Positions 4,181-50,072 of a DNA stretch of 64,000 nucleotides are shown here, in pieces (the stretch's first letter is position 1; each line of letters starts with the position of its first letter). The notes beneath the pieces are model-generated. The model was not told the DNA's origin and ran no database searches. It saw only the letters and a list, made by a program, of their open reading frames with translations. The position numbers and the translations under genes are program-made. Location of the stretch: NCBI RefSeq assembly GCF_054482525.1, contig NZ_CM137006.1. One strand, written 5' to 3'.

Positions 4181-4582
4181 ATGGCGAAAGAATTTGGTCG
4201 CCCGCAGCGCGTAGCGCAGGAAATGCAAAAAGAGATCGCTCTCATCCTGCAGCGTGAAATTAAAGATCCTCGTCTGGGCATGATGACCACCGTTTCCGGT
4301 GTCGAAATGTCTCGCGACCTGGCGTATGCCAAAGTATATGTAACGTTCCTCAACGACAAAGATGAAGACGCGGTTAAAGCGGGCATCAAAGCGTTGCAGG
4401 AAGCTTCTGGTTTCATCCGCAGCCTGCTGGGGAAAGCGATGCGCCTGCGTATCGTGCCGGAACTGACCTTCTTCTACGACAACTCGCTGGTTGAAGGGAT
4501 GCGCATGTCAAACCTGGTGACCAGCGTGGTCAAACATGACGAAGAACGTCGTGTTAACCCGGACGACAGCAAGGAGGACTAA
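4181..4582 (+). CDS. rbfA: Ribosome-binding factor A (30S maturation)
   Basis: [20 protein letters not shown]... 133 aa; start chosen at ATG 4181 preceded by AGGAG rather than the longer track ORF from 4082. Confidence 0.93.
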
Positions 4583-5526
4583 TGAGTCGTCCTCGTCGTC
4601 GCGGTCGCGACATTAACGGCGTTTTGTTGCTGGATAAACCGCAGGGTATGTCCAGCAATGATGCGCTGCAAAAAGTGAAACGGATTTATAACGCCAACCG
4701 TGCCGGGCATACCGGTGCGCTGGACCCGCTGGCAACTGGCATGTTGCCAATTTGCCTCGGGGAAGCGACGAAGTTTTCCCAGTATCTGCTGGACTCCGAC
4801 AAACGTTATCGGGTGATTGCGCGTCTTGGACAGCGTACCGATACGTCTGACGCCGATGGACAAATCGTTGAAGAACGTCCGGTAACCTTTAGCGCAGAGC
4901 AACTGGCGGCGGCACTGGATACTTTCCGTGGCGATATCGAACAGATCCCATCGATGTATTCAGCACTGAAATACCAAGGCAAAAAACTGTACGAATATGC
5001 GCGTCAGGGCATTGAAGTACCGCGTGAAGCGCGCCCGATTACCGTTTATGAATTGCTGTTTATTCGCCACGAAGGCAATGAGCTGGAGCTGGAAATTCAC
5101 TGCTCAAAAGGCACTTATATCCGCACCATCATTGATGACCTGGGTGAAAAACTCGGTTGTGGCGCGCATGTTATTTACCTGCGTCGTCTGGCGGTAAGTA
5201 AATATCCGGTTGAACGGATGGTGACCCTGGAACATCTGCGTGAACTGGTTGAACAAGCCGAACAGCAGGATATTCCAGCCGCGGAGTTACTTGATCCATT
5301 ACTGATGCCAATGGACAGTCCAGCTTCGGACTACCCGGTGGTGAATCTTCCGTTAACGTCTTCTGTTTACTTCAAAAATGGTAACCCGGTTCGTACATCC
5401 GGTGCGCCGCTGGAAGGACTGGTTCGCGTTACAGAAGGTGAGAACGGCAAGTTTATCGGTATGGGCGAAATTGACGATGAAGGCCGCGTCGCGCCTCGTC
5501 GCCTGGTGGTTGAATACCCGGCGTAA
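4582..5526 (+). CDS. truB: tRNA pseudouridine(55) synthase
   Basis: 314-aa ORF, TruB family motifs ([12 protein letters not shown]); 1-nt overlap with rbfA stop. Confidence 0.96.
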
Positions 5527-6190: not shown

Positions 6191-8326
6191 TTGCTTAATC
6201 CGATCGTTCGTAAATTCCAGTACGGCCAACACACCGTGACTCTGGAAACCGGCATGATGGCTCGTCAGGCTACTGCCGCTGTTATGGTTAGCATGGATGA
6301 CACCGCGGTATTCGTTACCGTTGTTGGCCAGAAAAAAGCCAAACCAGGTCAGGACTTCTTCCCACTGACCGTTAACTATCAGGAGCGTACCTACGCTGCT
6401 GGTCGTATCCCGGGTAGCTTCTTCCGTCGTGAAGGCCGCCCAAGCGAAGGCGAAACCCTGATCGCGCGTCTGATTGACCGCCCAATTCGCCCGCTGTTCC
6501 CGGAAGGCTTCGTCAACGAAGTTCAGGTTATCGCCACCGTGGTTTCTGTTAACCCGCAAGTTAACCCGGATATCGTCGCGATGATTGGTGCTTCCGCAGC
6601 ACTGTCTCTGTCTGGTATTCCGTTCAATGGTCCGATTGGTGCTGCCCGCGTAGGTTACATCAATGACCAGTACGTACTGAACCCGACTCAGGACGAGCTG
6701 AAAGAGAGCAAACTGGATCTGGTTGTTGCCGGTACTGAAGCCGCTGTACTGATGGTTGAATCTGAAGCTGAACTGCTGAGCGAAGACCAGATGTTGGGCG
6801 CAGTAGTGTTCGGTCATGAACAACAGCAGGTTGTCATTCAGAACATCAATGAACTGGTGAAAGAAGCCGGTAAACCGCGTTGGGACTGGCAGCCGGAGCC
6901 GGTAAACGAAGCGCTGAACGCGCGCGTTGCTGCACTGGCTGAAGCTCGTCTGAGCGATGCTTACCGCATCACCGACAAACAAGAGCGTTATGCGCAGGTT
7001 GATGTCATCAAATCTGAAACCATCGCGACGCTGCTTGCTGAAGATGAAACCCTGGACGAAAACGAACTGGGTGAAATTCTGCACGCTATCGAGAAAAACG
7101 TTGTTCGTAGCCGCGTACTGGCAGGCGAACCGCGTATCGACGGTCGTGAAAAAGATATGATTCGTGGTCTGGATGTGCGTACTGGCGTGCTGCCGCGTAC
7201 TCACGGTTCTGCGCTGTTCACCCGTGGTGAAACTCAGGCGCTGGTTACCGCAACGCTGGGTACTGCACGTGACGCGCAAGTTCTTGATGAACTAATGGGC
7301 GAACGTACTGACACCTTCCTGTTCCACTACAACTTCCCTCCGTACTCAGTAGGCGAAACCGGCATGGTCGGTTCTCCGAAGCGTCGTGAAATTGGTCACG
7401 GTCGTCTGGCGAAGCGCGGTGTGCTGGCAGTCATGCCGGATATGGACAAATTCCCGTACACCGTACGTGTTGTGTCTGAAATCACTGAATCCAACGGTTC
7501 CTCTTCTATGGCTTCCGTGTGCGGCGCGTCTCTGGCGCTGATGGACGCAGGTGTGCCAATCAAAGCTGCTGTTGCGGGTATCGCAATGGGTCTGGTGAAA
7601 GAAGGCGACAACTACGTTGTACTGTCTGACATTTTGGGCGACGAAGATCACCTGGGCGATATGGACTTCAAAGTTGCGGGTTCCCGCGACGGTATCTCTG
7701 CATTGCAGATGGATATCAAAATTGAAGGTATCACCAAAGAGATCATGCAGGTTGCGCTGAACCAGGCTAAAGGTGCGCGTCTGCATATCCTGGGCGTAAT
7801 GGAACAGGCGATCAACGCGCCGCGCGGCGATATCTCTGAGTTCGCTCCGCGTATCCATACCATCAAGATCAACCCGGACAAGATCAAAGACGTTATCGGT
7901 AAAGGCGGTTCTGTTATCCGTGCTCTGACCGAAGAAACTGGCACCACCATCGAAATCGAAGATGACGGTACTGTGAAGATCGCAGCGACCGACGGCGAGA
8001 AAGCGAAACATGCTATTCGTCGTATCGAAGAGATCACTGCAGAAATCGAAGTGGGCCGCGTCTACAATGGTAAAGTGACCCGTATCGTTGACTTTGGCGC
8101 ATTTGTTGCCATCGGCGGCGGTAAAGAAGGTCTGGTACACATCTCTCAGATCGCTGACAAACGCGTAGAGAAAGTGACCGATTACCTGCAGATGGGTCAG
8201 GAAGTACCGGTGAAAGTTCTGGAAGTTGATCGCCAGGGCCGTATCCGTCTGAGCATTAAAGAAGCGACTGAGCAGTCTCAACCTGCTGCAGCACCGGAAG
8301 CTCCGGCTGCTGAACAGGGCGAGTAA
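6191..8326 (+). CDS. pnp: Polynucleotide phosphorylase (PNPase), UUG start
   Basis: 711 aa from TTG at 6191 ([15 protein letters not shown]...); RNase PH, KH and S1 domains; track ORF from 6104 is an upstream in-frame extension. Confidence 0.95.
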
Positions 8327-12858: not shown

Positions 12859-13389
12859 TCAAATAAACCCCTGTTTATTATAAAGTTCTTCAGCGAGAGT
12901 TTCCCCGTGCTCATCGAAAAAAGCATCGGCGATAGTTAAATTTTCTGCCTTAGGATTTGCCGTTATTTTGCTACCATTGGCATCAAATTCGAGCGCGATA
13001 GCGGTCTCCGAACCCCACCAGTAATAATAAATTAGCGCAAAATTATTTTCCCCTGGCGTAATAAACTTCTCGATTCTCCGCACACAGGCCATGAGTGGCA
13101 TGAAGATTTCATAGCTCTCTGAGAGAAATATGTGATCCATCGTGACTATCTGTGTTTCTTTATTAAAGTTGATATGTTCGGCATAAATATTCTTTTCACT
13201 TTCACCAGAATTACAAGCTGCAAGATTGTTAAGCATTTTTGCAGGATCGCCGTACAACCGCTGCTTCTCGATAAACCATGGTAACCAGTCGTCATAGTCT
13301 TTGATATTTGTTGCTGGTGAATGGAAAAACTTCTCGAGGTTACTCTCGGTAATATGTGCATGAAGAAAAAAGGAAGCCGGTTCACTCAT
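12859..13389 (-). CDS. Hypothetical protein, 176 aa, no recognisable motif (orphan ORF in AT-rich islet)
   Basis: Clean ATG-start ORF with plausible RBS; AT-rich codon usage unlike flanking genes; no signal peptide; not part of the K-12 gene order as I know it. Confidence 0.6.
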   Translation of the reverse strand: MSEPASFFLHAHITESNLEKFFHSPATNIKDYDDWLPWFIEKQRLYGDPAKMLNNLAACNSGESEKNIYAEHINFNKETQIVTMDHIFLSESYEIFMPLMACVRRIEKFITPGENNFALIYYYWWGSETAIALEFDANGSKITANPKAENLTIADAFFDEHGETLAEELYNKQGFI

Positions 13390-13547
13390 GATGATTTTCT
13401 CTGGTAATAAGTCGATTTGTTCATTTCTCTGTTTGGTGATGATAAAACGATGACTATTTTATAAAAGTACAGAACTGGACCTTTCATCTATTTCATATCA
13501 TAAGAAAATATATACAAGAACTGGCTCAGAATAAGCGGAATACGAAA

Positions 13548-14267
13548 ATGGGGCGTAAAGGACTACTTGCTATTGTATTGTTGAGCCTGTTTATCGCCAT
13601 GATTTTTCAATTTTTCTGGCCTGCCCCACACGATGAGCACGTTTTCCTGCTGGTTGAAAAACCTGTCGTACCGTCTTTAAAAATCATTCACGCCGGCGAC
13701 CAGTTATTTATCCGCATTCTGAAAGCGGAAGATAAGCTGGAACTGTGGGCAAGCACCAACAACAAGCCTTACGAACTCTATAAAACCTGGACTATATGCG
13801 CGTGGTCTGGTGGCTTAGGGCCAAAGCACAAACAGGGGGATGGTAAAAGCCCGGAAGGTTTTTATGCCACCAACAAAGGGTTACTTAACCCAAACAGTCG
13901 CTATCATCTGGCATTTAATATTGGTTACCCGAATGCTTACGATCGGGCAAACGGCTACACCGGTGATTTCATTATGGTTCACGGAAACTGCCTTTCGGCG
14001 GGCTGCTATGCCATGACCGATGCTGGTATTGAAGAGATTTATCAACTGGTGGCGCAGGCGCTGAATAGCGGGCAGAAGAGCGTGCCGGTGCATATCTTCC
14101 CGTTTGCGATGAACGAAGAAAATATGCGCCAGGCGCAGGTATGGCCGGAATATAATTTCTGGCGTATGTTGAAGCCCGGCTATGATTACTTTGAAAAAAA
14201 TCGCCGATTGCCAACCATCACCATTGAAAACCGGCGTTATAAAATCAGCCCAACAACTCATCCTTAG
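13548..14267 (+). CDS. YafK/DpaA-like L,D-transpeptidase-fold protein (YkuD domain) with N-terminal signal/anchor
   Basis: 239 aa; hydrophobic N-terminus; YkuD catalytic motif HGNCLSAGC; long-range similarity to E. coli YafK (…SGGLGPK…[10 protein letters not shown]…[11 protein letters not shown]…GCYAM…PGYDYFE…). Confidence 0.75.
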
Positions 14268-19228: not shown

Positions 19229-20489
<1,261 letters not shown>

Positions 20490-28667: not shown

Positions 28668-29144
28668 TTAGTCAGGGATTTGTTCTTTTTGATCGCCAGG
28701 GACGTCCTGAATGAAAACATTCACGCCACGTTGTTTAATAAAACGTAAGTCCGTGAGATCCTGGTCATCGACATAAACTTTACTGCTGATTTGCTTTTTC
28801 CCTTCCGAGAAATGCATATTGCCGACGTTGACATCTTTCAGGTCAATGCCACCTTCTACCAATTTACGTACCGTTTGTGGCGTACGGCAAATCAGGAAGA
28901 TCTTTTGATGCGGTGCAGCTTTGCCGATGACATTAATGGTTTTTTCGATAGTAAAGAAACGAATGCCAAAGCCGTAGGTTTCCGCGGTAATACCCATTAA
29001 TTTCTGTTGAATATCATCGTTAGCGACAACATCATCCACGACTACCAGCAGATTTGCACCGATGGTAGATGTCCAGGTCACACCAACCTGGCCATGAACC
29101 AGACGGTTATCAATACGGGTTAAGAGAATATTTGGACTGCTCAT
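28668..29144 (-). CDS. agaB: PTS galactosamine-specific EIIB
   Basis: 158 aa, mannose-family IIB (LTRIDNRLVHGQV). Confidence 0.9.
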   Translation of the reverse strand: MSSPNILLTRIDNRLVHGQVGVTWTSTIGANLLVVVDDVVANDDIQQKLMGITAETYGFGIRFFTIEKTINVIGKAAPHQKIFLICRTPQTVRKLVEGGIDLKDVNVGNMHFSEGKKQISSKVYVDDQDLTDLRFIKQRGVNVFIQDVPGDQKEQIPD

Positions 29145-29310
29145 TGTGTAATCCTCACCATAAAGTTGAATAATATAATCTTTTTAAATATATTATTGTT
29201 GCGGTATTGTACTGATGTATTTATTAAGGTTTAGTTATCTCCTTTACCATTAAGGCACTCCCCGATATTAATCGGGAAGTACATTGGGATAAATCATAAA
29301 AAACTAATGA

Positions 29311-30183
<873 letters not shown>

Positions 30184-38765: not shown

Positions 38766-40337
38766 TCAGGTCACCGGTGCCGGGTTAAACACCGCCAGCT
38801 GGTTATGCAGTCCCCATTGATCTGAGAAGGTTTTCTTCTTCCCGCTGGCGACGTCGAGAATAAAGTGGAACAACTTCCAGCCCACCTCTTCAATAGTTTC
38901 TTCGCCGGTAGCGATGGTGCCCGCATTAATATCCATTAAATCAAACCAGCGGTTCGCCAGCTCGGTGCGGGTCGCCATTTTAATGACGGGTACCGCCATC
39001 AGGCCGTATGGCGTACCACGACCGGTCGTAAACACTTGCACGGTGATACCCGAAGCCACCTGTTGCGTGCCACAGACAAAATCGCTGGCTGGCGTCGCGG
39101 CGTAAATTAATCCGCGTTTAGTCGGGCGTTGACCGGGCGACAGCACTTCAACAATTGCACTTTTACCCGATTTAGCAATGGAGCCGAGCGCTTTCTCCAC
39201 CACGTTTGCCAGACCGCCTTTCTTGTTGCCCGGCGAAGGGTTGGCGCTGCGGTCGGTTTTTCCCATATTGAGATAGTTATCGTACCACTCCATCTCCTCC
39301 AGCAGCCGTTTGCCGACCTCTTCGTTCACTGCGCGTGGTGTCAGCAGATGGATCGCGTCACGCACTTCCGTGACTTCTGAAAACATCACCGTTGCGCCGC
39401 AGCGCACCAGTAGATCAGACGCATAGCCAACCGCCGGGTTTGCCGTTACGCCAGAAAACGCATCGCTACCGCCGCACTGCATGCCGACAACCAGTTCTGA
39501 AGCCGGACAGGTTTCTCGCTGCCGTTGATTCAGTTTGTGCAAATGGCGTTCGGCGACCTGCAAAATATCCTAGACCATGGACTGAAAACCGACATGCTTT
39601 TCATCCTGCAAACTGACAATGCTGGCGCTTTCTACTGGAATAGCTTGCACATCATCCGTTCCAGTCAGCAGGCGCTCAGGCTGCAACTTTTCACAACCCA
39701 GACCAATCACCATTACTTCGCCGCCAAAGTTAGGGTTCAGCGAAATATTGTGGATGGTACGAATAGGCACAACTGCCGCCGGTGCGTTAATCGCCACGCC
39801 ACAACCGTACAAATGATTCAGCCCCACCACGCCATCGACGTTCGGGTATTTCGGTAGCAGATCGCGTTCAATGATTTTTACTACATAGTCCACCACGCCT
39901 GCCACACAGTGGACGCTGGTGGTGATGCCGAGCAGGTTTTTGGTGCCCACGCTGCCATCGGCATTGCGATAGCCCTCAAAGGTGTAACCTTCAAGCGGCG
40001 GTAAGGGTTCCGGGACTTTGGTTGCAAGTGGCAGCGTGTGTAACGGCGGCGCTTCCGGTAGTACAACCATTGATTCGTCGATCCAGCTTCCGCGTGGGAT
40101 TGCGCGCACGGCGTAACCAATCACTTCGCCATAACGAATAATTTCACCATTAGCCGGAATGTCCAGCAATGCGACTTTATGCCCCTGGGGAATATGTTCA
40201 ATTAATTCCAGCCCATCCGGAAAACGCGTTCCTGCTTTCAGGCCATTATCATTAACAATAATTGCCACATTATCTGTGTCGTGAACTTTTATATAAAACG
40301 CAGTTGGCGTTTCTTGTCTGATTTCGATGTTGGCCAT
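38766..40337 (-). pseudogene. garD: Galactarate dehydratase GarD interrupted by an in-frame amber codon
   Basis: Two collinear ORFs in the same frame; minus-strand reading …[16 protein letters not shown]… with TAG at 39570..39572; no frameshift. Confidence 0.8.
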
Positions 40338-40711
40338 TGTGCAATATTCTCCAGCCAGGGGTTATTAAAATGAGGACCTGGTCTCATTTAAAAATAAATG
40401 ACTTCATTGGGTGAAATAAGAATGTCAGGAGTTTAAAGGCAGAAATGTGATCAATGTCAATCATTTCAGGGATTGCAGTGCCGCGCGGTAAGGTAAAGCG
40501 CAAATCTGTGCTTTAGCGCGCAACCTTATGTGCATATGCTCAAAATAATATTTAAATAGTACTGATTAAATTAGCATTTGCACAATGATTATTATTCTCC
40601 CGCTGCTTATACTAATTCCCGAGTTCATTGTCGTAACGGCATAAATAAAACTCATAAATAACACCTTCCCCATAATAATAAAAATCAGCATAAGTACCCG
40701 AGGTAAATAAA

Positions 40712-42046
40712 ATGATTCTGGACACCGTTGACGTAAAAAAGAAAGGCGTGCATACCCGCTATTTAATATTACTGATTATTTTTATTGTTACCGCCGTTAA
40801 CTACGCCGATCGTGCAACGCTGTCTATTGCTGGTACCGAAGTGGCAAAAGAGTTGCAGTTAAGTGCGGTTTCGATGGGTTACATCTTCTCTGCTTTTGGC
40901 TGGGCCTACTTGCTGATGCAAATCCCCGGCGGCTGGCTGCTTGATAAGTTTGGTTCGAAAAAAGTTTACACCTACAGCCTCTTTTTCTGGTCGCTATTCA
41001 CCTTCCTGCAAGGCTTTGTTGATATGTTCCCGCTGGCCTGGGCAGGGATCTCCATGTTCTTTATGCGCTTTATGCTGGGGTTCTCGGAAGCGCCATCATT
41101 CCCGGCGAACGCCCGTATTGTCGCCGCCTGGTTCCCAACGAAAGAACGTGGTACTGCCTCCGCCATCTTTAACTCGGCGCAATATTTCTCGCTGGCGCTC
41201 TTTTCGCCGCTGCTTGGCTGGCTGACTTTCGCCTGGGGCTGGGAGCACGTCTTTACCGTTATGGGGGTAATTGGTTTTGTGCTGACGGCGCTGTGGATCA
41301 AGTTGATTCATAACCCGACAGATCACCCACGTATGTCTGCGGAAGAGCTGAAGTTTATCTCAGAAAATGGCGCGGTGGTCGATATGGACCACAAAAAGCC
41401 GGGCAGTGTGGCAGCAAGCGGTCCCAAACTGCATTACATCAAGCAATTGCTCTCTAACCGCATGATGCTGGGCGTATTTTTCGGACAATATTTTATCAAC
41501 ACCATCACCTGGTTCTTCCTCACCTGGTTCCCAATTTATCTGGTGCAGGAAAAAGGCATGTCGATTCTGAAAGTGGGTCTGGTCGCCTCGATTCCGGCAC
41601 TGTGTGGCTTTGCGGGCGGCGTGCTGGGAGGTGTCTTCTCGGATTATCTGATCAAACGCGGTTTGTCCCTGACCCTGGCACGTAAGCTACCGATTGTGCT
41701 GGGAATGTTGCTGGCTTCCACCATCATCTTATGTAACTACACCAACAACACCACGCTGGTGGTCATGCTGATGGCGCTGGCTTTCTTTGGCAAAGGATTT
41801 GGTGCGCTGGGCTGGCCAGTGATTTCTGACACCGCGCCGAAAGAGATTGTTGGTCTCTGCGGCGGCGTCTTTAACGTCTTTGGCAATGTTGCCTCCATTG
41901 TCACTCCACTGGTGATTGGCTATCTGGTAAGTGAACTGCACTCCTTCAATGCAGCACTGGTTTTCGTGGGATGTTCAGCGCTGATGGCGATGGTCTGCTA
42001 CCTCTTCGTAGTTGGCGACATTAAACGTATGGAATTGCAGAAATAA
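40712..42046 (+). CDS. garP: Galactarate/glucarate MFS transporter GarP
   Basis: 444-aa 12-TM MFS ORF. Confidence 0.93.
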   Translation: MILDTVDVKKKGVHTRYLILLIIFIVTAVNYADRATLSIAGTEVAKELQLSAVSMGYIFSAFGWAYLLMQIPGGWLLDKFGSKKVYTYSLFFWSLFTFLQGFVDMFPLAWAGISMFFMRFMLGFSEAPSFPANARIVAAWFPTKERGTASAIFNSAQYFSLALFSPLLGWLTFAWGWEHVFTVMGVIGFVLTALWIKLIHNPTDHPRMSAEELKFISENGAVVDMDHKKPGSVAASGPKLHYIKQLLSNRMMLGVFFGQYFINTITWFFLTWFPIYLVQEKGMSILKVGLVASIPALCGFAGGVLGGVFSDYLIKRGLSLTLARKLPIVLGMLLASTIILCNYTNNTTLVVMLMALAFFGKGFGALGWPVISDTAPKEIVGLCGGVFNVFGNVASIVTPLVIGYLVSELHSFNAALVFVGCSALMAMVCYLFVVGDIKRMELQK

Positions 42047-43848: not shown

Positions 43849-44994
43849 ATGAAAATCGTAATCGCCCCAGACTCTTATAAAGAAAGTTTATCTGCCAGCG
43901 AGGTTGCGCAGGCGATAGAAAAAGGATTTCGGGAAATTTTTCCTGATGCACAGTACGTTTCTGTTCCGGTTGCCGATGGTGGCGAAGGAACGGTGGAAGC
44001 GATGATTGCAGCTACCCAGGGTTCTGAACGTCACGCCTGGGTTACAGGGCCGCTGGGCGAGAAAGTGAATGCCAGTTGGGGGATCTCCGGCGATGGCAAA
44101 ACCGCGTTTATTGAAATGGCGGCGGCCAGTGGACTGGAACTGGTACCTGCGGAAAAACGTGATCCACTCGTGACCACTTCACGCGGCACAGGCGAGTTAA
44201 TCCTACAGGCGCTGGAGAGCGGCGCGACAAACATTATTATCGGCATTGGCGGCAGCGCCACAAATGATGGCGGCGCAGGCATGGTACAGGCGCTGGGGGC
44301 GAAATTATGCGACGCCAACGGCAATGAAATTGGTTTTGGCGGTGGTAGCCTTAATACTCTGAATGATATTGATATTTCCGGCCTCGATCCGCGCTTAAAA
44401 GATTGCGCCATTCGTGTCGCTTGTGATGTCACCAATCCGCTGGTGGGCGATAACGGCGCATCGCGCATCTTTGGCCCACAAAAGGGAGCCAGTGAAGCGA
44501 TGATTGTCGAGCTGGACAATAACCTCTCTCACTATGCCGATGTCATTAAAAAAGCGCTGCATGTTGATGTGAAAGATGTCCCCGGCGCAGGAGCTGCGGG
44601 CGGTATGGGCGCGGCGCTGATGGCGTTTCTTGGTGCGGAACTGAAAAGTGGTATTGAAATCGTCACGACGGCGCTGAATCTGGAGGAACATATTCACGAT
44701 TGTACGCTGGTGATCACCGGTGAAGGGCGTATTGACAGCCAGAGTATTCACGGCAAGGTTCCGATTGGCGTTGCAAACATGGCAAAAAAGTACCATAAAC
44801 CGGTGATTGGCATTGCGGGTAGCCTGACCAATGATGTTGGCGTTGTACATCAGCATGGCATTGATGCGGTCTTCAGCGTATTGACCAGCATTGGTACGTT
44901 GGACGAAGCATTCCGCGGGGCTTATGACAATATTTACCGTGCTTCACGTAATATCGCCGCGACACTGGCGATTGGAATGCGCAACGCGGGGTGA
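43849..44994 (+). CDS. garK: Glycerate 2-kinase GarK
   Basis: MKIVIAPDSYKESLSASEVAQAIEKGF… 381 aa from internal ATG. Confidence 0.92.
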   Translation: MKIVIAPDSYKESLSASEVAQAIEKGFREIFPDAQYVSVPVADGGEGTVEAMIAATQGSERHAWVTGPLGEKVNASWGISGDGKTAFIEMAAASGLELVPAEKRDPLVTTSRGTGELILQALESGATNIIIGIGGSATNDGGAGMVQALGAKLCDANGNEIGFGGGSLNTLNDIDISGLDPRLKDCAIRVACDVTNPLVGDNGASRIFGPQKGASEAMIVELDNNLSHYADVIKKALHVDVKDVPGAGAAGGMGAALMAFLGAELKSGIEIVTTALNLEEHIHDCTLVITGEGRIDSQSIHGKVPIGVANMAKKYHKPVIGIAGSLTNDVGVVHQHGIDAVFSVLTSIGTLDEAFRGAYDNIYRASRNIAATLAIGMRNAG

Positions 44995-45026: not shown

Positions 45027-45403
<377 letters not shown>

Positions 45404-45412
45404 GATTTACGT

Positions 45413-45436
45413 AAAAACCCGCTTCGGCGGGTTTTT
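45413..45436 (+). terminator. Rho-independent terminator after rnpB
   Basis: aaaaacccgcttcggcgggttttt. Confidence 0.85.
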
Positions 45437-45508
45437 GCTTTTGGAGGGGCGGAAAGATGAATAAATATCAACGGTATTAATAATAGATTTTGTAAGAAGT
45501 TATTAAGT

Positions 45509-46696
45509 CTATATTGCATTTAAAAGGTCGTAATCATACGTATAGTCCTCTCTGGTATAATATTGCTTCTCTGAGTTATAAGCTTCATATGTATTATATT
45601 TTACGACTTCAAAGCAATTGTCTGGAGAATTTTCGTCTTTCTCGAGTGTATTATCTGGAAGGAATTCCTCTGAGCTAGAGTCCTCTATGTTTAAATCTGT
45701 ATTGTAATTAATTTTTGGATCGATTAGATAAGCATTTCCTTTGACGCTTTCATAATCTTTAATGATTATATCGATGTAATAATCTATTTTTTCTGATGAG
45801 AATGCTTTCATCTCTGGTAATCTAATTCTGTTCAAGTAATTGTTAATTTTCGATGAGCTTTTATATATTTCTTTTGTTAATTCATTTTCTAATTCATCTG
45901 TTAGAGTTGCTCTTGGTATAGATTCTATAATTGCAAGTCTCATAATTTTTAATTGTTCTTCGGTAATATCTCCAAGCGCATTTAAACAACTTTCGACAAG
46001 CTTAATTTTTTCTTCAGAATACATATCGTTAATGCTTGTTATAACAGGCGTTATTTTTAGTAAATAATCCCATGAGATTGTGGCGTTTTGTTTTGAACTA
46101 ACGAAATTTACCTGAAACATGTTGGCATTAGTAAAATCTGTGTCATCCAATTTAAAAGGGTTTAAAATTGTATTGGCCATATGTTTATCTGTAAAATCAT
46201 AAAGTTCTAAATCGACATTCCGTAAGTCCAGAGAGGATAGATCAACTATACCTCCAGTCCCACAACTAAAGATTACGTTCAACCTCCTGATTTCATTGTA
46301 AATGTCTTTCAATGGGCAATTAACATTGATATTGCCTGTGGATATTTCCTGGTTTTTTAACGGTTCATTAATTGTAAGTTCACAGGTATTGTCTGATCGT
46401 TGAATAATTCGGGCGTTATAACCAAAAAAATCCAGACGAAGAGACGAATCATTATAAAGAATTACATTTTGTAAGTACGCTAATTCTTTTTGAAAATCAC
46501 CAGTGATAATGCATTTCCCACCTGGTTGTAACGCGTTAAGTAAAGTGACCATTTGAACAGAGGTCTGTTTTAGTTTTTCTATGCCTGGTGCTAGTGCTTC
46601 GAGGTTATTTCCTATGGGGCTTTCAGGAAGATCATTCATTTTTCGACGGGCTAAATCACAACTAATATCATTACCAATTGATGAAACAGGGGACAT
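45509..46696 (-). CDS. yhaC: Uncharacterised protein YhaC
   Basis: 395-aa ORF in strongly AT-rich DNA, Asn/Ile/Lys-rich. Confidence 0.85.
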   Translation of the reverse strand: MSPVSSIGNDISCDLARRKMNDLPESPIGNNLEALAPGIEKLKQTSVQMVTLLNALQPGGKCIITGDFQKELAYLQNVILYNDSSLRLDFFGYNARIIQRSDNTCELTINEPLKNQEISTGNINVNCPLKDIYNEIRRLNVIFSCGTGGIVDLSSLDLRNVDLELYDFTDKHMANTILNPFKLDDTDFTNANMFQVNFVSSKQNATISWDYLLKITPVITSINDMYSEEKIKLVESCLNALGDITEEQLKIMRLAIIESIPRATLTDELENELTKEIYKSSSKINNYLNRIRLPEMKAFSSEKIDYYIDIIIKDYESVKGNAYLIDPKINYNTDLNIEDSSSEEFLPDNTLEKDENSPDNCFEVVKYNTYEAYNSEKQYYTREDYTYDYDLLNAI

Positions 46697-46717
46697 TATT
46701 TTATCCTTTATAAATAA

Positions 46718-47278
46718 TCAATAAAAATCATTATTAAAATGATCGGGTGAAAAAAAGAGAATTTGCCAACAATCTGTAGGAATGGAGGTTTTATTAAAGT
46801 ACGTAGGGGGGGTTAAGATGGCTTCTTTTCGGGTGAATTTTGCACAATACTTAGAAATCGTCTCCTTAATACACTCCAGCTCTTTTTTATTGACGGCTGA
46901 GCAAGTACATTGTTCGCCAAAAGGTGCAAAAGTGCCTACATCTAATGTTTGTATGATATAATCGTCATGTTCTCCTGTAGAAATATCTATGATGAATGGA
47001 CTCATATTTTCCGGTTGGATTCGGATCATGACAGAAGGAACATCGCCTTGATAGAAATTCAATGCAGTAATTGCAGATAATACTCTCCGCAGTTCATTAC
47101 TTATACTGTATATTTTATTAACGTCATTGGTGGAGACAATTTCTGCAAACTTTCTTTTTACCGTCCAATAATCAATATTTCTGTTGTGATTGTTAACCAC
47201 TGCGTGCATTGGTGGGATTGAAGGGTGAAAAATATGTGCAATTGGGAAGCCTTTCATTGATGCCAGCCTTGTCATCAT
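46718..47278 (-). CDS. yhaB: Uncharacterised protein YhaB
   Basis: MMTRLASMKGFPIAHIFHPS…; start uncertain (track ORF extends to 47317). Confidence 0.75.
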   Translation of the reverse strand: MMTRLASMKGFPIAHIFHPSIPPMHAVVNNHNRNIDYWTVKRKFAEIVSTNDVNKIYSISNELRRVLSAITALNFYQGDVPSVMIRIQPENMSPFIIDISTGEHDDYIIQTLDVGTFAPFGEQCTCSAVNKKELECIKETISKYCAKFTRKEAILTPPTYFNKTSIPTDCWQILFFSPDHFNNDFY

Positions 47279-47512
47279 GACAAACAATAATAGATGCTTA
47301 TTTTCCTCGCACGGCACTTTCGCACTATCAAAAAACGCTCATTTACCCGGCATTACAGTAAACGAAGCAACATTCTGTGGCCTACGCCGATCAAAAGCTC
47401 TGTGAAAATTCCCCTTGTTGTCTTTGGCAGACCTTATCGCGGCGACCAGCAATTATTCGTTTTGTGATCCTCAACACAAAATGCTATTCGTCGCCTATGA
47501 GGGGAGAGGAAT

Positions 47513-47731
47513 TTATGGAAAACGATTGCATTCACAAAATGACGTCCTGTCAGAAGAGAAAAAGTTGACGTTAATCAATTGTTCGAGATGATCAATACCT
47601 GTATTCGAAATTTTAAAATATTGATAAAATAAATGTTTGTTCTCCAACAAATAACGTGAAAAAATGTGACGTGCCGCATTATTTATCGCTGAAAATGGTT
47701 TATTTATAATAAAATTTGAGAACTTGCTCAT
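47513..47731 (-). CDS. tdcR: tdc operon activator TdcR (short form)
   Basis: MSKFSNFIINKPFSAINNAARHIF…; the open frame extends upstream to 47869. Confidence 0.7.
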   Translation of the reverse strand: MSKFSNFIINKPFSAINNAARHIFSRYLLENKHLFYQYFKISNTGIDHLEQLINVNFFSSDRTSFCECNRFP

Positions 47732-48045
47732 TAAATTTAACTCAAATTTTGCCTGGTAATTATCCGGTAATTGCTTGAAATATGGTCTCAGCCCCTTTTT
47801 TGTATTAACCACATAACGAATGATGTTATCGCCATAAAATATGGTTATCCCCGTCATTTTTTTTGACAAAAATCAGGGTTTATGCTGATTTTTATACTTT
47901 AACTTATTGATATATAAAGATATTTAATTGAAATAACGATGCCCTGGAAAGTATTGAAAGTTAATTTGTGAGTGGTCGCACATATCCTGTTCATTTCATT
48001 TTGATACACTTCATGCCGTCAATGAGGTAATTAACGTAGGTCGTT

Positions 48046-48984
48046 ATGAGCACTATTCTTCTTCCGAAAACGCAGCACCTGGTAGTCTTTCAGGAAGTCA
48101 TTAGAAGTGGCTCTATCGGCTCGGCTGCAAAAGAATTAGGGTTAACTCAACCGGCCGTCAGTAAAATCATTAACGATATTGAAGATTATTTTGGCGTGGA
48201 ATTAGTGGTGCGGAAAAATACCGGTGTAACATTAACACCTGCCGGTCAATTGTTACTCTCCCGTTCCGAATCCATTACCCGTGAAATGAAAAATATGGTT
48301 AATGAGATAAGCGGTATGTCTTCTGAGGCGGTGGTGGAAGTCTCATTTGGTTTTCCTTCATTGATTGGTTTTACTTTTATGTCCGGGATGATCAACAAGT
48401 TCAAAGAGGTGTTCCCGAAAGCGCAGGTTTCTATGTATGAAGCGCAACTGTCTTCGTTCTTACCGGCAATCCGCGACGGTCGACTGGATTTTGCGATTGG
48501 TACGTTAAGCGCAGAAATGAAGCTTCAGGATTTACATGTTGAGCCGCTGTTCGAGTCCGAGTTTGTGCTGGTAGCCAGTAAGTCCCGAACATGCACCGGC
48601 ACCACCACGCTGGAGTCGTTGAAGAACGAACAGTGGGTGTTGCCACAAACCAATATGGGGTACTACAGCGAGCTACTTACTACGTTACAAAGAAATGGCA
48701 TCAGTATTGAAAACATCGTTAAAACCGACTCAGTCGTGACAATTTATAATCTTGTTCTCAATGCTGATTTCTTAACTGTAATTCCTTGTGATATGACATC
48801 ACCTTTTGGTTCAAATCAATTTATTACTATTCCGGTTGAAGAAACATTACCTGTGGCACAATATGCCGCGGTATGGTCGAAAAATTATCGTATTAAAAAA
48901 GCAGCATCGGTTTTGGTGGAATTAGCCAAAGAGTATTCATCTTATAATGGGTGTAGACGAAGGCAATTAATTGAAGTTGGTTAG
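48046..48984 (+). CDS. tdcA: LysR-family activator TdcA
   Basis: 312 aa, N-terminal HTH (GSIGSAAKELGLTQPAVSKIINDIE). Confidence 0.93.
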   Translation: MSTILLPKTQHLVVFQEVIRSGSIGSAAKELGLTQPAVSKIINDIEDYFGVELVVRKNTGVTLTPAGQLLLSRSESITREMKNMVNEISGMSSEAVVEVSFGFPSLIGFTFMSGMINKFKEVFPKAQVSMYEAQLSSFLPAIRDGRLDFAIGTLSAEMKLQDLHVEPLFESEFVLVASKSRTCTGTTTLESLKNEQWVLPQTNMGYYSELLTTLQRNGISIENIVKTDSVVTIYNLVLNADFLTVIPCDMTSPFGSNQFITIPVEETLPVAQYAAVWSKNYRIKKAASVLVELAKEYSSYNGCRRRQLIEVG

Positions 48985-49082
48985 TTATTTGTTTTTATTT
49001 AAACATAAATAATCCACCTGTCTGTTTTGCAGGTGTCGGTTACGGTTACCTACATATTTAATTCAGGCTAAGAGGTTTTATA

Positions 49083-50072
49083 ATGCATATTACATACGAT
49101 CTCCCGGTTGCTATTGATGACATCATTGAAGCAAAACAACGACTGGCTGGGCGAATTTATAAAACAGGCATGCCTCGCTCCAACTATTTTAGTGAACGTT
49201 GCAAAGGTGAAATATTCCTCAAATTCGAAAACATGCAGCGTACCGGTTCATTTAAAATTCGTGGCGCATTTAATAAATTAAGTTCACTGACCGATGCGGA
49301 AAAACGTAAAGGTGTAGTGGCCTGCTCTGCGGGCAACCATGCGCAAGGGGTTTCGCTCTCCTGCGCGATGCTGGGTATCGACGGTAAAGTGGTGATGCCA
49401 AAAGGCGCGCCGAAATCCAAAGTAGCGGCAACGTGCGACTACTCTGCAGAAGTCGTTCTGCATGGTGATAACTTCAACGACACTATCGCTAAAGTGAGCG
49501 AAATTGTCGAAATGGAAGGCCGTATTTTTATCCCACCTTATGATGATCCGAAAGTGATTGCTGGCCAGGGAACGATTGGTCTGGAAATTATGGAAGATCT
49601 CTATGATGTCGATAATGTGATTGTGCCAATTGGTGGTGGCGGTTTAATTGCTGGTATTGCGGTGGCAATAAAATCTATTAACCCGACCATTCGTGTTATT
49701 GGCGTACAGTCAGAAAACGTTCACGGCATGGCGGCTTCTTTCCACTCCGGAGAAATAACCACGCACCGAACTACCGGCACCCTGGCGGATGGTTGTGATG
49801 TCTCCCGCCCGGGTAATTTAACTTACGAAATCGTTCGTGAATTAGTCGATGACATCGTGCTGGTCAGCGAAGACGAAATCAGAAACAGTATGATTGCCTT
49901 AATTCAGCGCAATAAAGTCGTCACCGAAGGCGCAGGCGCTCTGGCATGTGCTGCATTATTAAGCGGTAAATTAGACCAATATATTCAAAACAGAAAAACC
50001 GTCAGTATTATTTCCGGCGGCAATATCGATCTTTCTCGCGTCTCTCAAATCACCGGTTTCGTTGACGCTTAA
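49083..50072 (+). CDS. tdcB: Catabolic threonine dehydratase TdcB
   Basis: 329 aa, PLP-binding motif (SFKIRGA). Confidence 0.95.

Follow-up and report, generated by a model that had tools for sequence, protein, structure and literature searches.

Between the RNase P RNA gene rnpB and the tdc operon of E. coli lies an AT-rich stretch that carries yhaC, yhaB and tdcR, and it raises the question of whether this stretch is a single block of horizontally acquired, H-NS-silenced DNA, as a preliminary description had proposed. We examined it within a 64-kb window (the whole stretch of DNA that was analysed), in which genes were identified by RefSeq annotation and NCBIfam, and rnpB by Rfam. That description had taken K-12 as its frame of reference, which does not suit this DNA: the window matches E. 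coli PCN033 with 100% identity, and its yhaC-yhaB segment shares 93.5% identity with DH5alpha and MC1061 of the K-12 lineage (~6% divergence). Sequence comparison indicates that the AT-rich block is composite, consisting of an Escherichia-specific insert and an ancestral tdcR/tdc control region.

The composition of the block is as extreme as had been claimed. Positions 45440-47900 have a GC content of 0.340, vs 0.510 over the window as a whole, and no stretch of equal size has less; 0.18% of all 2,461-bp windows are as low, and every one of them overlaps the block. Windows of this size outside the block have a mean GC of 0.518 (sd 0.023) and never fall below 0.440. By feature, the GC content is 0.326 for yhaC, 0.363 for yhaB, 0.297 for tdcR and 0.318 for the tdcR-tdcA spacer, vs 0.618 for rnpB and 0.532 for garK. 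Low GC extends a little beyond these coordinates, starting at the rnpB terminator (about 45404) and reaching tdcA (about 48100), with a GC bump (0.447) in the yhaB-tdcR spacer. The bias extends to codons and proteins: GC3 is 0.27-0.33 in the yhaC, yhaB and tdcR genes, all on the minus strand, vs 0.43-0.52 in those of GarK, TdcA and TdcB, and the products, described beforehand as rich in Asn, Ile, Lys and Tyr, indeed have a combined N, I, K, Y and F content of 35-46%, vs 21-25% in the same three neighbours. AT tracts are enriched 5-fold in the block; 10-mers resembling the H-NS motif are enriched 2.2-2.7-fold, which equals the expectation from AT content alone.

The two parts of the block were separated by comparison with syntenic loci. 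At the corresponding site in Salmonella and Citrobacter, yhaC and yhaB are missing and the arrangement is garK-rnpB-(about 0.8 kb)-tdcA. Homology across genera (Salmonella, Citrobacter, E. albertii) stops just past the rnpB terminator, at 45444-45473, and in Salmonella and Citrobacter it resumes exactly at a conserved CRP site, with the short spacer alignable to 47452/47520-48095 of the window and holding no yhaBC remnants. In E. albertii, the sole trace of the intervening DNA is a 5' fragment of yhaB with 75% identity. Blastn and tblastn searches against these loci, together with identity profiles against K-12 and strain R32_14_1F, delimit a hypervariable, Escherichia-specific insert of ~2 kb (45447-47450) that comprises yhaC, yhaB and their flanks. 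The insert begins ~45 nt past rnpB, at the same point as the integrase-island junction in two compared loci. The proposal of one horizontally acquired block is thus plausible for yhaC-yhaB, which are absent from this site in Salmonella and Citrobacter, and fails for the tdcR third, which is ancestral by homology.

The right-hand part, 47452-48045, aligns with Salmonella and Citrobacter, two CRP-type sites included. Because of this homology with their spacer, it is ancestral DNA and not an acquisition by E. coli, and its AT-richness would reflect its regulatory nature. At its left end, marking the insert's right edge, is the palindromic CRP site TGTGTTGAGGATCACA (47463-47478), which the alignment shows to be shared by Salmonella, Citrobacter and E. 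albertii and which is an exact match to a K-12 site where Footprint-seq recorded in vitro CRP binding (PMC12871828). The annotated tdcR gene encodes 72 aa (47513-47731, minus strand; NCBIfam NF008507, 174 bits; RefSeq), and the longest ORF, from a TTG, encodes 118 aa and reaches 47869. Within tdcR, on the same strand, we read the sequence AACAATTGATTAACGTCAACTTTT (47560-47583), an FNR ChIP-associated sequence listed as an FNR target under the label yhaB (PMC1802558). The divergent tdcR-tdcA control region (47732-48045, GC 0.318) contains the block ATATGTGCGACCACTCACAAAT, with its core at 47967-47982, conserved in the cross-genus alignment. Outside E. coli, the DNA blocks around tdcR are conserved but the ORF is not: its ATG start is ATA in E. 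albertii, and Salmonella and Citrobacter have no ATG at the aligned position and are put out of frame by a 1-nt gap. Within E. coli, its dN/dS is 0.6-1.0, based on few substitutions.

On the left, the insert adjoins a GC-rich boundary. The rnpB gene (45027-45403, plus strand) was found at full length by Rfam (RF00010, 318.6 bits) and is annotated in RefSeq. Its final 20 nt, CTTATCGGTCAGTTTCACCT (45384-45403, plus strand), are followed by the rnpB intrinsic terminator, a hairpin read directly from the sequence as AAAAACCCGC-TTCG-GCGGGTTTTT (45413-45436, plus strand), for which Rfam gives weak terminator-type matches only. In E. coli strains other than PCN033, CTTATCGGTCAGTTTCACCT serves as the attachment core of an integrase island, with one copy at either end, as at the two junctions of the ~7.8 kb integrase element of strain YZ22PE67; the integrase of the YZ22PE67-type rnpB island was found in 12 genomes. 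The 3' end of rnpB is thus a live attachment site in E. coli. In K-12, the rnpB 3' end and terminator are repeated in tandem, as 3.5 copies of 113 bp. In the window, CTTATCGGTCAGTTTCACCT occurs once in the 64 kb; a search at the yhaB side of the insert found no second attachment copy. Neither end of the insert shows an integrase, a transposase, an attachment repeat or any other mobility scar, and the AT-rich block contains no integrase ORF. Rfam at a relaxed threshold returned terminator look-alikes only, and a tRNA search found none.

The preliminary description had called the products of the insert uncharacterised, and they remain orphans. The yhaC gene (45509-46696, minus strand; NCBIfam NF007262, 856 bits) encodes an acidic protein of 395 aa with relatives only in E. 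coli/Shigella, and yhaB (46718-47257, minus strand; RefSeq annotation), 21 nt upstream on the same strand, encodes an orphan of 179 aa; the pair is listed as a young operon (PMC12218254). Single-sequence and profile queries of 5.8 billion proteins found no relatives beyond E. coli/Shigella, and an exhaustive HMMER search with YhaB among 1.84 billion representatives returned YhaB itself, its own fragments and one spurious repeat protein; this match, to a 945-aa MBG-type repeat protein (E 5e-8, 8 stretches), was rejected as repeat-inflated. GTDB species genomes gave no relative outside E. coli, the matches in Collinsella and Bacteroides MAGs being two mis-binned E. coli contigs. Plasmids and phages likewise held none beyond E. 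coli/Shigella; PLSDB 'plasmid' matches were mislabelled chromosomes of 4.8-4.9 Mb, plus one 354 kb record. PHROGs gave no matches. PADLOC defence models matched neither YhaC nor YhaB, with a single chance-level match for TdcR (E 0.028), and a toxin-antitoxin or defence pair was dropped after zero model matches. Nevertheless, both genes are under relaxed purifying selection (dN/dS 0.28-0.36 for yhaC and about 0.25 for yhaB), and allele comparisons show zero stops among as many as 176 non-synonymous and 96 synonymous changes; since this constraint holds across large synonymous divergence, yhaB and yhaC do encode real proteins.

To call the pair conserved in K-12 is misleading, because it belongs to the most polymorphic part of the neighbourhood. 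Nucleotide identity is 72-95% in the insert vs 97-100% in the flanks, and amino-acid identity between the very divergent allele classes of YhaB and YhaC goes down to 63%. At least 80% of the pair is kept in 4,319 of the 5,426 complete E. coli genomes, and in about 1,085 of them (~20% deleted) a remnant of ~100 bp is all that is left. The region is also deleted, with no harm, in the genome-reduced strain DGF-298. Variation at the locus comprises three allele classes, mosaic alleles and a two-part deletion. Collectively, yhaB and yhaC are dispensable genes that have been lost or broken in many lineages and that exist as deeply divergent, recombining allele classes.

For H-NS occupancy, we turned to published K-12 data. 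The intragenic 'promoter island' of yhaC (PMC3661553, Table 1, entry 3266734_706 yhaC(+)) corresponds approximately to 45695-46401 of the window, after conversion from K-12 coordinates. In K-12, this island is H-NS-bound in all ChIP-chip studies compared (H = A), and the tdcA/tdcR island is bound in two data sets (Kahramanoglou and Oshima, marked 'K'); the GIST, Nakamura and Lawrence-Ochman predictors mark both islands as foreign (PMC3661553). The expected H-NS signal is thus there in K-12; because that allele is ~6% diverged, occupancy in PCN033 is an extrapolation. In the window, this locus has a surplus of promoter-like hexamer pairs, 17 vs 9.8 ± 3.0 in shuffles, the majority inside yhaC. 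With SELEX-derived RNA polymerase sites and a CRP site close by, yhaBC may be expressed under some conditions.

Of the profile comparison and structure prediction that the preliminary description had suggested, the former hinted at a beta-helix in YhaC, and in the latter both AlphaFold2 models were unusable (YhaC from a 20-allele alignment, pLDDT 41, with only residues 40-145 at 60-72; YhaB from 5 sequences, pLDDT 34.5). Fold searches gave no significant match, although EspG was a recurrent, non-significant entry in the Foldseek list, and sequence searches of solved structures gave chance-level matches only. YhaC appears to begin with a conserved domain, followed by a short pentapeptide-like beta-helix, a region of helices and an acidic tail, which is variable but ends, in the allele alignment, in a conserved YTYDYDLLNxI. 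The pentapeptide-repeat-like segment (residues about 137-205; 46082-46288, minus strand) resembles the SopA/NleL/YjbI beta-helix. In Pfam it stays below the gathering thresholds (PF13599, Pentapeptide_4, 14.9 vs 38 bits; PF00805, Pentapeptide, 12.9 vs 20.2), and residues 151-199 weakly match repeat models and solved pentapeptide-repeat proteins. In hhalign, the YhaC allele profile matched SopA/NleL/YjbI with 77-87% probability (E 4e-6 to 2e-5, residues 137-253) and a score of 43-48 vs 14.8 ± 2.1 for shuffled templates and 19.7 for a QnrB control, the template profile being built from three sequences and scores in repeat regions being inflated; against SopA alone, the probability was 9.5%. Past the helix there is a colinear motif, VITSINDMYSEEKIKLVESCLNAL vs TIDSLPDKYSQEKVQAMEDLVKSL (pairwise E 0.001). 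As a positive control, K-12 YjbI was clearly SopA/NleL-related, matching NleL/SopA structures at 4e-10. No Pfam match to the SopA central domain (PF13981) or the HECT-like C-lobe (PF13979) was found in YhaC at E up to 1-10; a SopA fragment used as a positive control matched PF13981 at 2.8e-18. These comparisons are suggestive of a beta-helix like that of the SopA/NleL type III effectors.

Taken together, these results are best explained by an acquired, H-NS-silenced yhaB-yhaC insert set beside an ancestral tdc control region, an explanation we consider probable on the basis of the composition, synteny, orphan status, polymorphism and selection described here and of H-NS occupancy from the K-12 literature. 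Horizontal transfer most likely brought the insert into an ancestor shared by E. coli and E. albertii, once Salmonella and Citrobacter had branched off, and any mobility functions would since have been lost. The insert lies directly 3' of rnpB, at a point where living integrase elements still attach. Its very low GC would make it a substrate for H-NS filaments, and these would keep yhaBC and the many spurious yhaC promoters quiet by xenogeneic silencing, as we infer for PCN033. YhaC is an acidic protein with a putative short SopA/NleL/EspX-like, pentapeptide-type beta-helix and no catalytic domain, its effector-like nature being likewise putative. The second part, 47452-48045, is the ancestral control region upstream of tdc, with its CRP-type sites and the small tdcR ORF inside. 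Because donor searches among proteins, GTDB genomes, plasmids and phages found no source lineage or homologue of yhaB/yhaC anywhere, transfer is not demonstrable, and the horizontal origin of the pair remains an inference.

That same lack of a donor, homologue or mobility scar would fit an origin in place, whereby yhaB-yhaC arose de novo or as fast-evolving lineage-specific genes, or were ancestral and lost in Salmonella and Citrobacter, with AT-richness due to mutational bias in weakly expressed DNA. The adjacent tdcR region is ancestral and equally AT-rich, so low GC here needs no transfer, and repeated independent deletions within E. coli and in E. albertii also agree with loss. However, a recent de novo origin is unlikely for ORFs of 395 and 179 aa kept at a dN/dS of about 0.3 over a dS of about 0.6, the Salmonella/Citrobacter spacer is clean and short with its homology back exactly at the CRP site, and the insert adjoins a proven attachment site; we therefore regard an origin in place as quite improbable. 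Somewhat better placed, though still doubtful, is the reading that the AT-rich zone as a whole serves mainly as an extended cis-regulatory platform for tdc, its ORFs being incidental, tdcR above all. The conserved, non-coding-style blocks and two CRP-type sites shared by four genera, the reported FNR and CRP binding, and the poor preservation of the tdcR ORF all suit it, but it accounts for the right-hand 0.6 kb only: yhaC-yhaB are constrained at the protein level, and the Salmonella tdc operon runs without them. Also against it, older genetics (Schweizer and Datta 1989) reportedly identified TdcR as a trans-acting activator.

A further reading concerns what the insert encodes. YhaC might be a functional or recently functional secreted beta-helix effector of the SopA/NleL/EspX type, with YhaB as its partner (e.g., a chaperone), the pair being a type III relic whose allele diversity stems from host arms races. 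The hhalign match well above shuffles and the QnrB control, the post-helix motif, the YjbI control and the EspG entries lean this way, as does a published screen for positive selection in which yhaC is one of the top 14 genes (PMC9110714). Yet the overall dN/dS is about 0.3 and dS is elevated to the same degree as dN, which argues against pervasive positive selection; at 395 aa, YhaC is too short for the catalytic HECT-like region and lacks the SopA central and C-terminal matches; the result with SopA alone, the three-sequence profile, the repeat-inflated scores and the unusable models weaken the likeness; nothing ties YhaB to chaperones; and 20% of strains have deleted the pair. We consider this reading unlikely. 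Slightly more speculative still is the idea that an ancient integrative element targeting rnpB left yhaB-yhaC behind as its stranded cargo and that YhaC is a truncated, catalytically dead SopA/NleL/EspX relative whose divergent, recombining alleles are kept through interaction with a host or phage factor.

With the composite explanation preferred, the locus is of an already known and ordinary xenogeneic-silencing type, to which some detail is added, and no new system. It is a textbook case of foreign-looking DNA in E. coli: an AT-rich orphan pair beside a stable-RNA gene, H-NS-coated and decaying in a lineage-dependent manner. The details added are the split between insert and ancestral DNA, the live rnpB attachment site, the deep yhaC/yhaB allele classes and the weak conservation of the tdcR ORF; they are useful for annotation, tdc regulation and the study of y-genes, and they leave current understanding unchanged.

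Comparison with known systems places the locus further. Like islands at the 3' ends of RNA genes (tRNA/tmRNA-type attachment), the insert lies directly past the rnpB terminator, where other E. coli carry tyrosine-integrase elements with the 20-nt rnpB repeat; unlike them, it is just 2 kb long and the window is devoid of an integrase, a second attachment copy or another mobility gene. Canonical pentapeptide repeat proteins (PF00805/PF13599; Qnr, Np275/276) share with YhaC the weak matches at 151-199, whereas YhaC would form only ~two to three helical turns, scores far under the cut-offs and has no meaningful profile match with the QnrB control. The SopA/NleL (EspX7)/YjbI family shows a possible likeness: residues about 137-205 score best against its helix, a similar motif follows, and both are AT-rich Escherichia backbone genes. 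YhaC differs in lacking a SopA central domain match, the HECT-like catalytic lobe and its cysteine, and in its 395 aa, which include an N-terminal domain unrelated to the family and an acidic tail, any homology being tentative. The nearest parallel is with the H-NS-silenced xenogeneic and promoter islands of K-12 (Panyukov and Ozoline 2013, PMC3661553; ChIP data of Grainger, Oshima and Kahramanoglou). Here the lineage-specific part is two-thirds of the block, the tdcR/promoter part being ancestral regulatory DNA, and the window allele is ~6% from that of K-12, with occupancy carried over from it. Nevertheless, the locus shares with those islands the extreme AT-richness, the surplus of intragenic promoter-like sites and the orphan genes of unknown function missing in sister genera, and the K-12 orthologue of the yhaC locus is itself listed among them with H-NS occupancy.

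The neighbourhood comprises garK (annotated at 43849-44994, + strand), rnpB (45027-45403, +; Rfam RF00010, 318.6 bits) with its terminator hairpin (45413-45436, +), yhaC (395 aa; 45509-46696, −), yhaB (179 aa; 46718-47257, −), tdcR (annotated 72 aa, maximal ORF 118 aa; 47513-47731, −), and tdcA (48046-48984, +). The preliminary description treated the DNA between rnpB and the tdc operon as a K-12 block; however, the sequence is that of E. coli PCN033, which matches the window at 100% identity over 45300-48050, whereas over yhaC-yhaB laboratory strains of the K-12 lineage share 93.5% identity with it. The strong AT-richness that it noticed is borne out: GC at 45440-47900 is 0.340, against 0.510 for the whole window, and is the minimum among all windows of equal length, those outside the block averaging 0.518 ± 0.023 with none below 0.440. 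The low-GC zone is in fact bounded by the rnpB terminator and the beginning of tdcA, with a GC bump (0.447) in the yhaB-tdcR spacer. Elsewhere, 500-bp windows also dip below 0.40 GC in shorter stretches at 12951-13800, 28851-29600, 40151-41000, and 48551-49350, the last being the tdcA-tdcB junction. GC3 of the block genes is 0.27-0.33, and their products are indeed rich in Asn, Ile, Lys, and Tyr, which together with Phe make up 35-46% of residues compared to 21-25% in neighbouring proteins. AT tracts are 5-fold enriched in the block, as are H-NS-motif-like 10-mers (2.2-2.7-fold), although base composition alone accounts for the latter excess.

Published data bear on the corresponding DNA of K-12. 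A 706-bp "promoter island" inside yhaC is H-NS-bound in all compared ChIP-chip data sets, and a 477-bp tdcA/tdcR island is bound according to the sets of Kahramanoglou and Oshima (PMC3661553, Table 1); both islands are foreign according to GIST, Nakamura et al., and Lawrence-Ochman (PMC3661553). In keeping with these data, sigma70-like hexamer pairs number 17 in the block versus 9.8 ± 3.0 in shuffles, the majority lying within yhaC and many being antisense, and RpoS and RpoH holoenzyme sites have been located inside yhaB by genomic SELEX. A terminator-like palindrome (10-bp stem followed by a T-run, + strand) lies at 46030-46053, inside and antisense to yhaC; the number of such sites is no higher than the shuffled expectation. 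The reading of the block as AT-rich, foreign-looking, H-NS-associated, and uncharacterised holds; its assignment to K-12 and the ideas of a single acquired unit and of conservation did not hold. Collectively, the original observation is confirmed and its interpretation is right in part. For K-12 the phenomenon has been published before, and its class is a familiar one. Our additions are small: where the insert begins and ends, the ancestral status of the tdcR part, how the alleles group and how often the pair is deleted, the attachment site at rnpB, and a possible SopA-like helix.

To compare the locus across species, neighbourhoods were retrieved via TdcA proteins and rnpB was located in them with Rfam. 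The order garK-rnpB-tdcA is shared by Salmonella enterica and Citrobacter freundii, in which rnpB and tdcA are separated by a spacer of ~0.8 kb without a called gene. By blastn, homology to the window ends in other species at 45444-45473, just past the rnpB terminator, and restarts at 47452 (Salmonella) or 47570 (Citrobacter), continuing to tdcA at 68-69% identity. The E. albertii spacer is 1.1 kb; it retains the tdcR region (79% identity) and a 127 bp piece of the yhaB 5' end (75% identity), and the same comparison found no yhaC in it. The yhaCB-less spacers of Salmonella and Citrobacter, together with the E. albertii remnant, indicate that yhaC-yhaB (~45447-47450) is an insert of the Escherichia lineage that predates the E. 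coli/E. albertii split. The tdcR/tdc-promoter third, homologous in Salmonella and Citrobacter, is ancestral to these Enterobacteriaceae, so the block was not acquired as one unit.

In a six-way alignment, conservation of the ancestral part is confined to discrete blocks, namely ATATGTGCGACCACTCACAAAT, GGGATAAC..TTTATGGCGATAAC, TCATTTTGTGAA, and the perfect palindrome TTTTGTGTT-N-ATCACAAAA (47463-47478), a pattern typical of regulatory DNA. The palindrome corresponds to the K-12 sequence to which CRP binds in vitro (PMC12871828), and the K-12 3,267,652 mutation, from a review of gallium-resistance experimental evolution, falls within it (PMC13160365). It sits exactly on the right-hand edge of the insert. 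Because it is kept in Salmonella and Citrobacter, both of which lack yhaBC, it is ancestral rather than a promoter element dedicated to yhaB. An FNR ChIP peak corresponds to sequence inside tdcR, 47560-47583 in the window (PMC1802558). The 72-aa tdcR ORF is intact in E. coli, where its dN/dS is 0.6-1.0 with very few changes; its start codon is ATA in E. albertii, and Salmonella and Citrobacter have no ATG at the aligned start and carry a frame-shifting 1-nt gap. The DNA blocks around tdcR are conserved across genera even though the ORF itself is preserved only in E. coli, and the region may serve more in cis regulation than in coding for a protein.

The two insert genes are confined to one species. 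No YhaC relatives beyond E. coli/Shigella were found among 5.8 billion clustered proteins, using either a single sequence or a 20-allele profile (E up to 10), and a pattern search across 100,044 species genomes brought up just two mis-binned E. coli contigs, short contaminants in "Collinsella" and "Bacteroides" MAGs. The E. coli representative genome in that GTDB set apparently lacks yhaC. YhaB, searched without a word filter against 1.84 billion representatives, matched only itself, its own fragments, and one spurious sequence, which was rejected as repeat-inflated. A phage search gave no match, and plasmid-collection matches were Escherichia records only, mostly mislabelled chromosomes (three PLSDB "plasmid" records with yhaC are 4.8-4.9 Mb). 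In comparisons of PCN033, K-12, and R32_14_1F, a divergent isolate from a goat, yhaC has a dN/dS of 0.28-0.36 and yhaB one of ~0.25; the differences, none of them a stop codon, number as many as 176 non-synonymous and 96 synonymous. The flanking garK and tdcA give 0.00-0.07. These values point to protein-level but relaxed constraint on both ORFs, which are species-restricted yet real genes.

No other part of the neighbourhood is as polymorphic or as dispensable as the insert, which is at odds with its earlier label as conserved. Inside yhaC, nucleotide identity is 85-95% to K-12 and 72-87% to R32_14_1F, compared to 97-100% in the flanks, and divergence at synonymous sites is as high as 0.6, or five to six times the flanking value. 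Among the alleles of YhaC there are classes at ~97%, ~88%, and ~63% amino-acid identity. At least one allele is a mosaic: P0028 joins ~240 N-terminal residues of the common class to ~150 C-terminal residues of the 63% class, which indicates that deeply divergent alleles have recombined within the gene. yhaC has been published as positively selected (PMC9110714), a call to be weighed against the joint rise of dS and dN; because dS climbs along with dN, the diversity looks less like simple positive selection than like long-standing allele lineages that recombination has reassorted. At least 80% of yhaC-yhaB is retained in 4,319 of 5,426 complete genomes, while ~1,085 keep nothing but a ~100 bp yhaB remnant, left by two deletions (45553-46364 and 46428-47154). 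The region is also deleted from the genome-reduced strain DGF-298.

As to the nature of the products, AlphaFold gave no usable fold (pLDDT 41 for YhaC and 34.5 for YhaB), fold searches returned nothing significant, and neither protein matched PADLOC or PHROGs. The allele alignment shows a strongly conserved YhaC N-terminal domain (residues 20-113) and a variable, acidic C-terminal tail ending in a nearly invariant YTYDYDLLNxI. Pentapeptide-repeat matches were sub-threshold in Pfam (residues 152-201) and weak in a PDB profile search (several proteins, residues 151-198). SopA-type effectors carry a pentapeptide-type helix, and YhaC shares with SopA (query fragment confirmed against PDB 2QZA) a colinear motif after the helix (pairwise BLASTP, E 0.001). 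With hhalign, YhaC against SopA alone reached 9.5% probability; residues 137-253 against a three-sequence SopA/NleL/YjbI profile reached 77-87% (score 43-48, versus 14.8 ± 2.1 for column-shuffled templates, 19.2 for a reversed template, and 19.7 for QnrB). The positive control, K-12 YjbI, was clearly NleL/SopA-related (E 4e-10). These scores are suggestive of a SopA-like beta-helix; membership of YhaC in the SopA family is unproven, and the protein, with no Pfam match to the SopA central and catalytic domains, is too short to hold them.

How the insert arrived may be gauged from rnpB. E. coli YZ22PE67 carries a ~7.8 kb element between rnpB and yhaC that encodes a tyrosine integrase, a primase-helicase, and a recombinase. 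Each end of this element is bordered by CTTATCGGTCAGTTTCACCT, the final 20 nt of rnpB (window 45384-45403; copies at 19981-20000 and about 27737-27756 in L015 and at 8085-8104 in L004, two E. coli loci with this island). Its integrase is present in 12 of 5,426 complete E. coli genomes. The rnpB 3' end with its terminator forms 3.5 tandem 113-bp copies in K-12 (4347-4739 of locus L005), a single copy in PCN033 (window 45354-45462), and a partial second copy in Salmonella (6229-6322 of locus L011; 78% identity); this copy number explains most length differences among E. coli matches. The flanking repeats and the copy variation mark the rnpB 3' end as an attachment site still in use, and it is therefore plausible that an ancient element targeting it brought in yhaBC. 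The window itself has neither a second att copy nor an integrase nor any other scar, so this route is an inference. In a few E. coli strains, rnpB thus behaves like the tRNA and tmRNA genes that serve as integration targets, with its 20-nt core duplicated around an integrase element.
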